A program made the position numbers. DNA of 63,953 bases, the filler included, from Acidimicrobiia bacterium (GTDB lineage Bacteria > Actinomycetota > Acidimicrobiia > Spongiisociales > CAZKJJ01), in assembly GCA_046759765.1 (NCBI GenBank). It is 8 parts of 8 records of this genome, joined end to end, with 100 filler letters (N's around TTAATTAATTAA, not from the genome) between each part and the next. Parts side by side here need not be neighbours in the genome. Positions count along the whole stretch, not along the records: positions 8,694 to 17,200 come from JBHICV010000110.1; 7 more parts are not named here. The stretch is one strand, 5' to 3'. Of the stretch, positions 9,001 to 12,000 are shown one piece after another. How positions within the stretch are numbered: the stretch's first letter is position 1; every line of letters starts with the position of its first letter.

Positions 9001-12000
9001 CCGAAGAGAGCCACGCGGCGTTCCACCGACCACAGCCGGGGACGGAACCGAATCAGATAGAAGGACAGGAGTAGCACGGCGAGCGTCACGATCAGGGCCA
9101 GCGCGGCCGCGTTGGCGGCGCTGCCCGTCTCCAGCAGGCCCGACTCGTCGAGGGCCTGTAGCTGGATGGGCGAGATTATGTCGCCCTGCTCAACGATTTT
9201 CTGGTTCTGCTCGAAGGTGACTTCGACCGGATCCACCGCAGCTCGGGCGGCGTCACGGGCCGCCTGGGTCCTGGCTTCGTTGGGGAAGCTGTTGAGAACG
9301 ATATTGGTGGCCACGATGTCCGACACTGCTTCGCCCGCCTCGCGGTCGGCGGTGCCGTCGTCGAAGAACACCGTGCGGGGCGCGGCATAGAGCTCGGCGG
9401 CGAGAGCGTCGCTGTCCGCCGCGGTACGGATCTCCCTCGCCATCGTGTCTTCGGCCCGTCGCAGGGCTTCGATCTCGACTTGATCGAGGTACGGACTCTC
9501 GGCCAGCGCACGGCGGGCGACGTCGTCGCTGGCGAGTGCGACGAGCTTGGTGATCGTTGTTCCGCGCAGTCGCGGATGACTCTGCAGAAGCAGCGCCTCT
9601 TGGGTAGCGCGTGCTTCGGTTACGGGAGCGAAGCCGACGTCGAGAGCCTGAAGGGATGACCCGGCGCGGACCTCCAGCTCTGGAAAATCTCCCGTCGAAG
9701 GCGCCAACAGATCGGGGAATCCAGGAGCCGAGTAGTCGATGTGGATGAAGACCGTGCCGGCGGGCAGGTCGCCCACTCGGAACACACCGAGGGCGTCGGT
9801 GGTGGCGCTGCGGACCGATCCGTCCGCGGCCACGACCGTCACGTCGATGCCTTGGAGGGGACCGTCGCCCGCCTCAGGCGCGTAGTCACCGCTGGCGTCT
9901 GCGTCGACGAATACAAGGCCGGTGACCTCGCCGGGTTGCGGCAAGGTAGTGGTCGTCTCCTCTTGTGCCGGCGGCAGGGTGGGTGTGAGCTCCGGGGTGG
10001 GTAGCCCGGGCACCGGCGGAATGGCGGCCGTCGGCGGCTCCACGCCTGCTTCGACGTCCGCAAACAGAACCTGGACCTGCTGGCGGACCTCGTCTACCCG
10101 CGTCGGATCCCGTTCGTAAACGGTCTCGACCGCCGCCGCGGCCGCCTCCTGCCGCTCGGCTGTGGCGGCCTCGTCGGTGATGACGATTTCACGCGTGGCG
10201 AAGTAGGTCTTCGGGGGGAGGCTCGGCAGCCGGACGACCGATCAGGAGCGAGCCCCAGGCCAAGCCGATAGTGAGCAGAAGAATGAGAATCTTGGCCGGG
10301 CTGATCCGCCACGGAGTGAACTCCCTGGTCACGACTCGTTCTCCTGGTCGTAGCGCTCATACGCCTCGACGATCGCGGCAACGATCCGGTGCCTGACTAC
10401 GTCTTTGGGCGTCAACACCTCGAAAGCCACCCCGGGGATTCCCTCCAGCACATCAAAGACCTGTTGCAGACCCGAGCCCTTCGGGTATTGCAGATCCACC
10501 TGCGTCACGTCGCCGGTGATAACCATCTTGGAGTTGAAACCGAGCCGGGTGAGGAACATCTTCATTTGCTCGGGGGAGGTGTTCTGAGCCTCGTCGAGGA
10601 TGACGCAAGCGTCGTTGAGTGTTCGGCCTCGCATGTAGGCGAGCGGAGCGATCTCGATCGTGCCCCGTTCCATCAGGCGGGCCGTCTCCTCCGGGCCGAG
10701 CATCTCGAACAGAGCGTCATAGAGCGGCCGCAGGTAGGGGTCAATCTTCTGGGACAGGTCGCCGGGCAGGAAGCCGAGCCGCTCCCCTGCTTCGACGGCA
10801 GGTCGGGTGAGGAGAATGCGACTGACGGCTCCGCTCTTGAACAGCTCGATGGCGGCTGCCATGGCCAGGTAGGTCTTGCCGGTCCCGGCTGGACCGATGC
10901 CGAACACCAGGGTGTTCTCTCTGATGGCGTCGATGTATTGGCGCTGGCCCAGGGTTTTGGGCCGGACGATCTTGCCGCCACCGACAGCGATCCCCTCGGT
11001 GAACACGTTGGCAGGACTGGGGACGTCCTCCGCCACCATTTCGATGACGCGAGCGACCCGTTGGCCGTCGAGGCGTTGGCCCTCCTGAACGAGGATGAGC
11101 AGCTCGTCAAGCACGGTACGAACCTGCTCGGTCTCCTCCGAGGGGCCGGCGATGATGAACTCGTTGCCGCGGGCGACGATCTTCGTGTCGGCGAAAGCGC
11201 GTTCGATCGTTCGCAGGTGCGCGTCCCGTTCACCCAATAGCTCCAGCATCAGGTGGTTACTCGAAACGCGAAGCCGGACTTCAGCGGAAGAGGCTTGCAG
11301 CAATGGATCCTCGGTGAGTGAGGAAGCGTGGAATGAAGGCATTATACCCGGGACCTGTTATGTAAATCGAGAGGGTTACCGGCGGTTTCCGGTTCGTTAA
11401 ACCGAGGCTTATTCGGCTTCTACCAGCAGATCCCTCAGTGTCTCCTCGTTGGCTCCCACCAAGCCTGCCAACAGGCGCAGGTCGCTGTGCCGGATGGTGA
11501 GGATGCGCCCGTTGAAGTCCTGGCGCAATACCTGGATGGAGCGGAGGAAGCGCTCGATGAGGGCAGCGGTTTCCTCGTCTGCGCTCTCCACTCGGTTGAG
11601 GTCGATGGTGATGCCGCCGCTCGGCCACGCCATCGGAGCGCTGGCAGGTTCCTGGCTGGGAGGTAGGAGCTGGTCGACGGGAACCCCGTAGAAGGAGGCC
11701 AGCCGCTGCATGCGCGGCAGCGAAAGACTGCGTTCTCCCCGTTCGTAGGCTCCGAGCACCGATGCTTTGAATTCCTGCTCAGAGCGCGCCTCGACGTCCT
11801 GAAGCGAGAGCCCCTTCTGCTTGCGGATGCCACGTAGTCGCTGCCCGACGGCTACGTTGTAGCTCTCCGCCGTCATGGGTCCCCCTCCAGGTGCCTACCG
11901 GCGAGTCGAGCGTAACACACCGGCTCGCGCCGAGCTGGCACCACTTTCCGTGACATTCGTGGCCACTGCGAGTCTAGGCCTGGAGGCCCCTCCCAACCAA

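Follow-up and report, generated by a model that had tools for sequence, protein, structure and literature searches.

A predicted BldD regulon of cell-surface and c-di-GMP genes in an Acidimicrobiia bacterium

Here we report that a c-di-GMP-type BldD probably regulates a set of cell-surface genes in the genome of an uncultured Acidimicrobiia bacterium through the palindrome YCAC-N5-GTGR, which often occurs as a pair of boxes. We regard this regulon as a real prediction, one not attributable to chance; the regulator is known, but its setting is new. A first-pass annotation of the same DNA had read it as control of surface attachment. Tad pilin, sortase and LPXTG genes are indeed enriched, in several independent families, but genes for GGDEF/HD-type, DivIVA-domain, PH-fold and Smc proteins also fall within the predicted regulon, which is therefore better described as a cell-surface and c-di-GMP regulon than as one of attachment alone; the "adhesin" and "unicellular" labels are inferences. 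The pairing of boxes at 21 bp is new relative to that first observation. To our knowledge, the only established role of BldD is that of master brake on sporulation, yet its gene predates sporulation. The structure of the BldD dimer has been solved.

In Streptomyces, the published BldD box is TNAC-N5-GTNA (PMC4151990), the RXD-X8-RXXD signature for c-di-GMP is defined in PMC4151990 and PMC5499655, and BldD is described as repressing four cyclase genes (PMC8325347). A bldD orthologue in Acidimicrobium was noted by Chandra and Chater, who read bldD as an ancient gene (PMC4255298), and its presence was thus already in print, as the first-pass annotation stated; the section concerned offers a guess at a stationary-phase role only, without box, regulon or signature. 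Within the literature covered, which stops short of the primary target lists (den Hengst 2010, Mouri 2017) and supplements, where sortase or tad genes may be listed, we found no BldD regulon in Acidimicrobiia, no link of BldD to Tad/Flp pili and no boxes paired at 21 bp. The relevant passages of PMC13595943, PMC13251363, PMC10359459 and PMC5650626 contain no BldD-pilus link.

The BldD-type regulator and its spread

The window, the whole stretch of DNA analysed (63,953 nucleotides, filler included), is a chain of separate contigs, one of which (G000:C110) carries the bldD locus (Table 1). The 155-residue protein encoded there matches the Pfam family BldD-like_C (PF21179) with 57.7 bits (cut-off 27) as well as HTH_3. 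Its best PDB match over the DNA-binding part (residues 5-72) is BldD 2ewt (E 2.8e-17) and that of its C-terminal domain is BldD 4oay (E 1.3e-7). It has in common with Streptomyces BldD (2EWT, 4OAY, 5TZD; NF050110), as described in PMC4151990 and PMC5499655, both the two-domain layout and the c-di-GMP signature, which is intact and reads R118-Q-D...R129-H-S-D. The recognition-helix region is conserved with Streptomyces BldD and almost invariant within Acidimicrobiia. NCBIfam NF050110 is the best family for the protein, with 139.9 bits; because this lies under the cut-off of 250, we filed the protein as a distinct form of BldD and not as an equivalog, and on its sequence matches we assign it as the Acidimicrobiia form. 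A single-sequence fold was poor (pLDDT 56) and was left out of the analysis. The gene lies in a context conserved in Acidimicrobiia, with dnaJ/rsmE on one side and phoH on the other, and a consensus scan of the locus returned no promoter.

Table 1. Features of the bldD locus in the window
Feature	Position	Strand	Basis
bldD-type gene, 155 aa	11409-11876 (= G000:C110:2716-3183)	-	ORF and domain matches
XRE helix-turn-helix DNA-binding domain, residues 14-70	11667-11837	-	Pfam HTH_3; PDB 2ewt
BldD-like C-terminal domain, residues 89-153	11418-11612	-	Pfam PF21179; PDB 4oay/5khd
RXD-X8-RXXD c-di-GMP signature, R118-D120 and R129-D132	11481-11525	-	Sequence, definition from PMC4151990, PMC5499655
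Ribosome-binding site GGAGG 5' of the bldD ATG	11884-11888	-	Read from sequence
Candidate -10 hexamer of bldD, weak prediction	11909-11914	-	Self-trained promoter model, 5.1 bits
BldD-type box, main predicted autoregulatory site	11940-11954	.	13.9 bits, matrix trained on relatives only
Weak second box, 22 bp further upstream of the main bldD box	11962-11976	.	4.2 bits
dnaJ, upstream neighbour; conserved context, no predicted target	12166-13242	-	Domain matches; similar upstream context in relatives
hrcA, upstream of dnaJ	13252-14265	-	Domain matches
phoH, downstream neighbour of bldD	10329-11342	-	Domain matches

Both the wide distribution of the orthologue and the retention of its signature, put by the first-pass annotation at 38 of 41 genomes and 29 of 30 loci, are borne out on a larger sample. 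A BldD match at E<=1e-20 was found in 53 of the 61 genomes of the order, source genome included, the misses being all seven genomes of family f10 and one of family f3; the relatives that bear names are Acidimicrobiia. The signature is present in 29/29 relative bldD loci of a first set, in 80/80 of a wider set (31 closer and 49 more distant) and in 14 of 20 further loci, all six misses belonging to f3; these counts leave out three BldD-positive genomes of the order. A PF21179 profile search gave no match in G013 or in any of four f10 genomes, and the control of that search was silent as well. Family f10 likewise yielded no match for sortase, Flp, WhiG or GGDEF, so its shared losses count as one event and make a weak control.

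The signature also stands, as the first-pass annotation held for both copies in the source genome, in a second bldD at G000:C224:1241-1717, whose protein is 60% identical to the window copy. This protein clusters with those of f9 (99/96 support), the contig that carries the gene is 3.3 kb long, and a single bldD copy is present in the closest genome. Duplication within the lineage was rejected on the f9 grouping and the single copy of the closest genome; the C224 gene is a transferred gene (xenolog) or a binning contaminant.

The box and its predicted targets

Motif training was carried out by EM on the bldD promoters of 28 relatives, weighted by genus, and the top de novo palindrome in these promoters was gtCACtcagaGTGac. 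The same motif came back from EM runs that included no bldD sequence, on 16 surface-gene promoters of the source genome and on 73 flp/tadE promoters of relatives. The resulting Acidimicrobiia consensus, YCAC-N5-GTGR, shares its spacing and AC/GT core with the Streptomyces box, and a palindrome with a 5-base spacer and c-di-GMP enzyme genes as targets, here predicted ones, are common to both systems; it differs in the C common at the outer position and in the frequent 21-bp pairs. The exact Streptomyces consensus is found in 1 of 51 strong intergenic sites, and 27 of the 51 match it in one half.

The box expected before bldD itself was recovered (Table 1). For relatives, the earlier count of a box within 130 nt of bldD in 18 of 29, against 109 of 2714 genes, is close to our own, in which the simple pattern CAC-N5-GTG lies within 130 nt in 20 of 28 usable bldD promoters against 110 of 2647 genes of the source genome. 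With the matrix, a box of at least 10 bits was detected in 55/80 bldD promoters, of which 29/49 come from other orders; the 31 closer loci among the 80 include some training genomes again. In f11, none of seven bldD promoters has a box (0/3 and 0/4). Unpublished genomes G003 and G014 contributed two of the 28 training promoters and the f4 rows; a matrix built without them gave boxes at 9/16 surface genes of the source genome against 56/1558 others.

Across the source genome, for which a self-trained model rendered 2950 genes, matches of at least 12 bits numbered 142, of which 51 (36%) were intergenic and 91 genic. Intergenic DNA makes up 9% of this genome, and 9 intergenic matches would be expected from the genic rate; among 150 permuted palindromic matrices the intergenic share was 10+-4% and none reached 36%. 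A few intergenic matches fall in repeat-like elements (C18, C19). A surface set of 18 genes was compiled by protein motif, and the 16 whose gene-free upstream DNA spans 40 bases or more were scored: ten had a box of at least 10 bits, against 53/1558 other genes and a length-matched expectation of 0.69. In a spacer control on these 16 genes, N5 gave 8/16 and the spacers N2-N4 and N6-N10 gave 0-2/16. The boxed genes comprise 4/5 first tadE genes, 2/2 sortases, 3/3 genes for LPXTG proteins and 1/6 flp genes. Pfam backs the TadE and sortase identities, places three flp products over the cut-off and two as weak (C6 was left out of the scan), and gives weak LPXTG-anchor matches for two of the LPXTG proteins. 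All sites named in the first-pass annotation (C70, C102, C121, C175, C21 and C29) were found again, the last two at C21:21637 and C29:4482-4536, and its claim of enrichment before tad/flp, sortase and LPXTG genes stands for the surface set as a whole, but not for most flp genes. The cpaB operon, pilA, pilB, the Tad machine and the type IVa pilus operons of the source genome have no box, and export-type proteins outside the surface set are not enriched among boxed genes there (11/53 vs 224/1477, p 0.18). The c-di-GMP genes of this genome include a GGDEF-EAL gene with a GGDEF motif, a REC-GGDEF gene and an EAL gene; the sole GGDEF-EAL gene is without a box. A search for SsgA in the source genome gave no match, and its control was also silent.

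As the surface classes were first picked after matches had been seen, it is the tests in relatives that carry weight. There, the 30 best-scoring loci were compiled for each of sortase, TadE and Flp; kin genomes in these counts are non-independent samples. Among these best-scoring loci, a box of at least 10 bits precedes 17/51 flp, 8/23 tadE and 5/22 sortase genes against 8/128 other genes; flp and tadE together are boxed in 25/74 cases, whereas 200 permuted matrices averaged 1.4 and never exceeded 10. There is an excess of flp/tadE boxes in f5 (5/6), f6 (10/13), f9 (3/5) and f12 (2/5); in f11 the count is 4/10 against a background of 3/12, and boxes of at least 10 bits are absent in f2 (0/10), f7 (0/2) and f8 (0/6) and nearly so in f3 (1/17), again among the best-scoring loci. 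In other orders, 7/22 flp promoters are boxed, across 5/13 genomes, as are 0/3 tadE and 2/18 other genes. GGDEF genes of relatives are boxed in 6/21 cases.

The proposed sortase link holds in the source genome, in the closest genome, which has a box pair before its sortase, and in f6, the family of all five boxed sortases among the relatives' best-scoring loci, but it fails elsewhere (0/17 in other families). The pilus claim narrows as well: its predicted targets are scattered operons for minor pilins (TadE/Tad) and a part of the flp genes, but not the pilus machine. Membership of single genes in the regulon turns over between families. The gene whiG, which is a direct target in the BldD regulon of sporulating actinomycetes, abuts xerC and is unboxed here, with a box of at least 10 bits in 0/31 upstream regions. 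A candidate bldD-to-whiG link was rejected on this count, the match at C69:8625 lying inside xerC.

Paired boxes and families that lost parts

Around 67 strong intergenic matches, second sites lie at 21 bp in 14 cases and at any other distance in at most 2, and genic matches have no peak at 21 bp. Over the whole source genome, 17 pairs have the 21-bp spacing, and each of 18 other distances accounts for 1-8. In a search with a fixed pair pattern, allowing one mismatch and taking the reversed pattern as control, 54 genomes returned 181 matches where the control returned 80, and the seven f10 genomes, in which no bldD was found, returned 2 where it returned 13. Matches clearly exceed controls in f1, f2, f3, f5, f6 and f11 and do so by a small margin in f7, f8 and f12, but not in f9 (8 vs 10 controls) or f4 (2 vs 2); 59 genomes of other orders gave only 127 matches against 86.

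From the 172 pair sites in relatives most were taken, omitting a few further copies of a recurring repeat and some sites whose coordinates had already assigned them to bldD or tadE, which left 160 distinct sites to be scored, 95 of them intergenic. By a simple hydrophobicity rule, 45/82 genes downstream of pairs encode an export-type N-terminus, against 32/127 in the background. With proteins previously identified as Flp, TadE or BldD set aside, 73 downstream products were scanned with Pfam. The scan identified TadE, CpaB and PilB with MshEN; SpaA, SdrD_B with LPXTG anchor, DUF7507/DUF11, Ig, VWA, SLH, PG-binding, CAP and M6 peptidase; and three DivIVA and two RDD proteins, polysaccharide enzymes, SMC and a dCache protein. 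Pairs also stand before GGDEF/HD_5 genes, and many unrelated or unnamed proteins are encoded downstream of pairs as well. The pair search, which is blind to gene class, points to the cell surface. An unnamed PH-fold family has pairs at 3/5 of its genes in the source genome and also at homologues in close genomes; its N-terminal domain has a predicted fold with pLDDT 88 that matches a PH domain (Z 10.2, rmsd 2.7, 80 aligned). Atlas searches with this family and with the N-terminal domain of one LPXTG protein named no family.

In f3 the signature is kept in 0/6 loci, the bldD box in 1/6 and flp/tadE boxes in 1/17, six of seven genomes have a single weak GGDEF match only, and the pair excess persists (29 vs 13 controls); the pattern, seen in one lineage, is consistent with a regulator that has become independent of c-di-GMP and given up its pilin targets. 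Family f7 keeps the signature and the bldD box with an equally weak GGDEF match, and f11 keeps BldD and the flp/tadE boxes but lacks the box at bldD.

Proposed mode of control and its alternatives

As the intact signature and the motif suggest, c-di-GMP would most likely bridge two BldD C-terminal domains, as in Streptomyces, and the resulting dimer would bind the YCAC-N5-GTGR palindrome. Boxes 21 bp apart are separated by two helical turns, so two dimers would probably sit next to each other on the same DNA face, perhaps cooperatively. The predicted direct targets are mainly cell-surface genes, namely Tad minor-pilin operons, some flp genes and type IV pilins, sortases, LPXTG substrates, and SpaA/SdrD-type and other secreted wall proteins; others would be bldD itself, some c-di-GMP enzymes, DivIVA-domain genes and the unnamed PH-fold family. 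High c-di-GMP would bring repression and falling c-di-GMP release, a direction that we consider fairly likely and whose brake logic is that of Streptomyces BldD and of the Rubrobacter RsiG-WhiG pilus switch.

The placement of boxes at pilin and wall-anchored genes suggests that the older job of BldD was control of the cell surface. We put forward, tentatively, that ancestral BldD was a c-di-GMP brake on building the cell surface, acting as two dimers on 21-bp paired boxes with feedback on c-di-GMP enzymes, and that sporulators rewired this surface regulon into aerial development. The surface genes concerned are those of Tad and type IV pilins, sortase-anchored or secreted wall proteins and DivIVA-type polar proteins.

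It is also possible, if somewhat unlikely, that BldD binds these boxes as a regulator of lifestyle in general or of stationary phase. Its regulon would then be broad and fast-changing, with surface genes as one conspicuous part, and the pilus link would be a feature of some lineages and not ancestral; this overlaps with our main reading of a surface and c-di-GMP regulon and differs in emphasis. The source genome has some 45 strong intergenic loci, the majority outside the surface set, with smc, FtsH-like protease and PH-fold genes among the further targets, links to targets are patchy between families, and a stationary-phase role in simple actinobacteria was proposed by Chandra and Chater (PMC4255298). 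Yet in the unbiased pair search, over nine families, pilins and secreted wall proteins predominate, and flp boxes recur in 5/13 genomes of other orders.

Activation of surface genes at high c-di-GMP, following the logic that high c-di-GMP means stick, seems to us unlikely. In several bldD promoters the box is centred between -41 and -51 relative to the predicted start, much as an activator site would be, BldD is described as activating some secondary-metabolite genes in other actinomycetes (PMC10359459), and boxes overlap predicted promoters at chance (8/18 vs 7.8 expected). Against this, six promoters of the source genome with clear -35/-10 hexamers (C13, C21, C29, two at C70, and C121) have their best box centred between -27 and +29, which places it within the promoter or downstream of it. 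A -35-like hexamer can, however, be provided by the box itself, which weakens the argument from position.

That another transcription factor binds a real motif and governs a real surface regulon, bldD being merely one of its targets, is improbable. The motif does depart from the Streptomyces consensus, f11 boxes its pilin genes and not its bldD, and f10 is without several regulators besides BldD, so that the missing pairs there do not single out BldD. The odd-length palindrome has, however, the 5-base spacer and AC/GT core of the BldD box, the box is conserved at bldD across orders, the recognition-helix region is near-invariant, and GGDEF genes are predicted targets, as they are targets of Streptomyces BldD (PMC8325347). 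A chance origin, or one as by-products of promoter hexamers or repeats in intergenic DNA, is most improbable and largely refuted by controls: the motif is short with many genic matches, a few intergenic ones lie in repeat-like elements and the half-sites resemble -35 hexamers, but the signal is reproduced by none of the controls, whether with permuted matrices, other spacers, length matching or the reversed pattern, the sharp 21-bp pairing is confined to intergenic matches, motif discovery is reciprocal and whiG is unboxed.

A close parallel to the proposed brake is the (RsiG)2-(c-di-GMP)2-WhiG complex of Rubrobacter, where, as described in PMC8325347 and inferred there from promoter motifs, a Streptomyces developmental c-di-GMP switch acts on type IV pili and on DGC/PDE genes of an actinobacterium that does not sporulate. 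That switch is a sigma/anti-sigma pair on type IV pili, with start-site mapping, whereas here an XRE regulator would act mainly on Tad pilins and sortase substrates, as read from sequence alone. Pilin, sortase and wall-protein genes are predicted to be direct targets here, whereas control of the Streptomyces chaplins passes through BldN (PMC4255298). If the proposal is true, surface structures would be off at high c-di-GMP and, together with WhiG-RsiG, both developmental c-di-GMP switches of Streptomyces would derive from pilus or surface control in non-sporulating ancestors. The role of BldD in simple actinobacteria has so far been left as a guess (PMC4255298, in the section concerned); a defined box, a target list and a signature-less family make it directly testable with purified protein. 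Alongside the Rubrobacter pilus result, the predicted regulon hints at how a surface-control circuit may have become a developmental one.

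Promoters of flp genes and the family f10

Three flp genes of the source genome (G000) have in common a conserved promoter stretch, and their upstream regions carry a 5' hairpin whose end is the ribosome site; both elements are independent of the BldD box, the predicted palindrome YCAC-N5-GTGR. A further flp gene, on contig C12, is without a BldD box and has upstream a perfect CRP-type site, TGTGA-N6-TCACA. Neither bldD, whiG, GGDEF, Flp nor sortase was found in any of the seven genomes of f10, a family within the order (G009, G020, G029, G038, G045, G052 and G059; completeness 94-97%).

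A second palindrome and boxes away from called gene starts

Distinct from the BldD box is a TGACTAGTCA-like palindrome, intergenic in 13 of its 15 copies in G000 and situated upstream of flp, tadE or LPXTG genes in five; it is possibly the site of a co-regulator. At the end of contig C142, 122 bases form an inverted copy (93% identical) of the C121 sortase promoter, including its paired boxes (two BldD-type boxes 21 bp apart), and the gene served lies beyond the contig. At three other places very strong predicted boxes or pairs stand more than 300 bases from the start of any called gene, and could be promoters of small RNAs or missed genes.

Positions of the features discussed (C, contigs of G000; L, loci of relatives)
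Feature	Positions
Upstream regions of flp genes with shared stretch	C62:6713, C102:8338, C172:3710
flp gene with CRP-type site	C12:13255-13476(-)
TGACTAGTCA-like palindrome	C12:13557, C21:21549, C29:4428, C143:1337, C148:2796, C36:16401, C42:4665
Sortase promoter copy	C142:5927-6048
Boxes without a nearby called gene start	C29:4094-4129, C80:299, C61:11966
PH-fold family	C13:24283-24819, C19:23234-24040, C32:14672-15667, C143:1395-1991, C25:3598-3882
Small H...R-x2-C-x2-C proteins	L104:1137-1412, L104:1602-1835, L319:763-954, L329:1030-1218, C42:4289-4573
Type IVa pilus cluster	C7:27000-36413

PH-fold proteins, small cysteine-motif proteins and type IVa pili

Five G000 genes encode a family with an N-terminal PH-fold domain, behind which the tails vary; Pfam gave no family above cut-off for it. 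An H...R-x2-C-x2-C motif forms the tail of some members and also occurs in small proteins, for which no Pfam family was found and several of which are encoded downstream of paired boxes. The BldD box is absent from the type IVa pilus cluster of G000, two ATPases of which bear MshEN and are likely direct c-di-GMP receptors.
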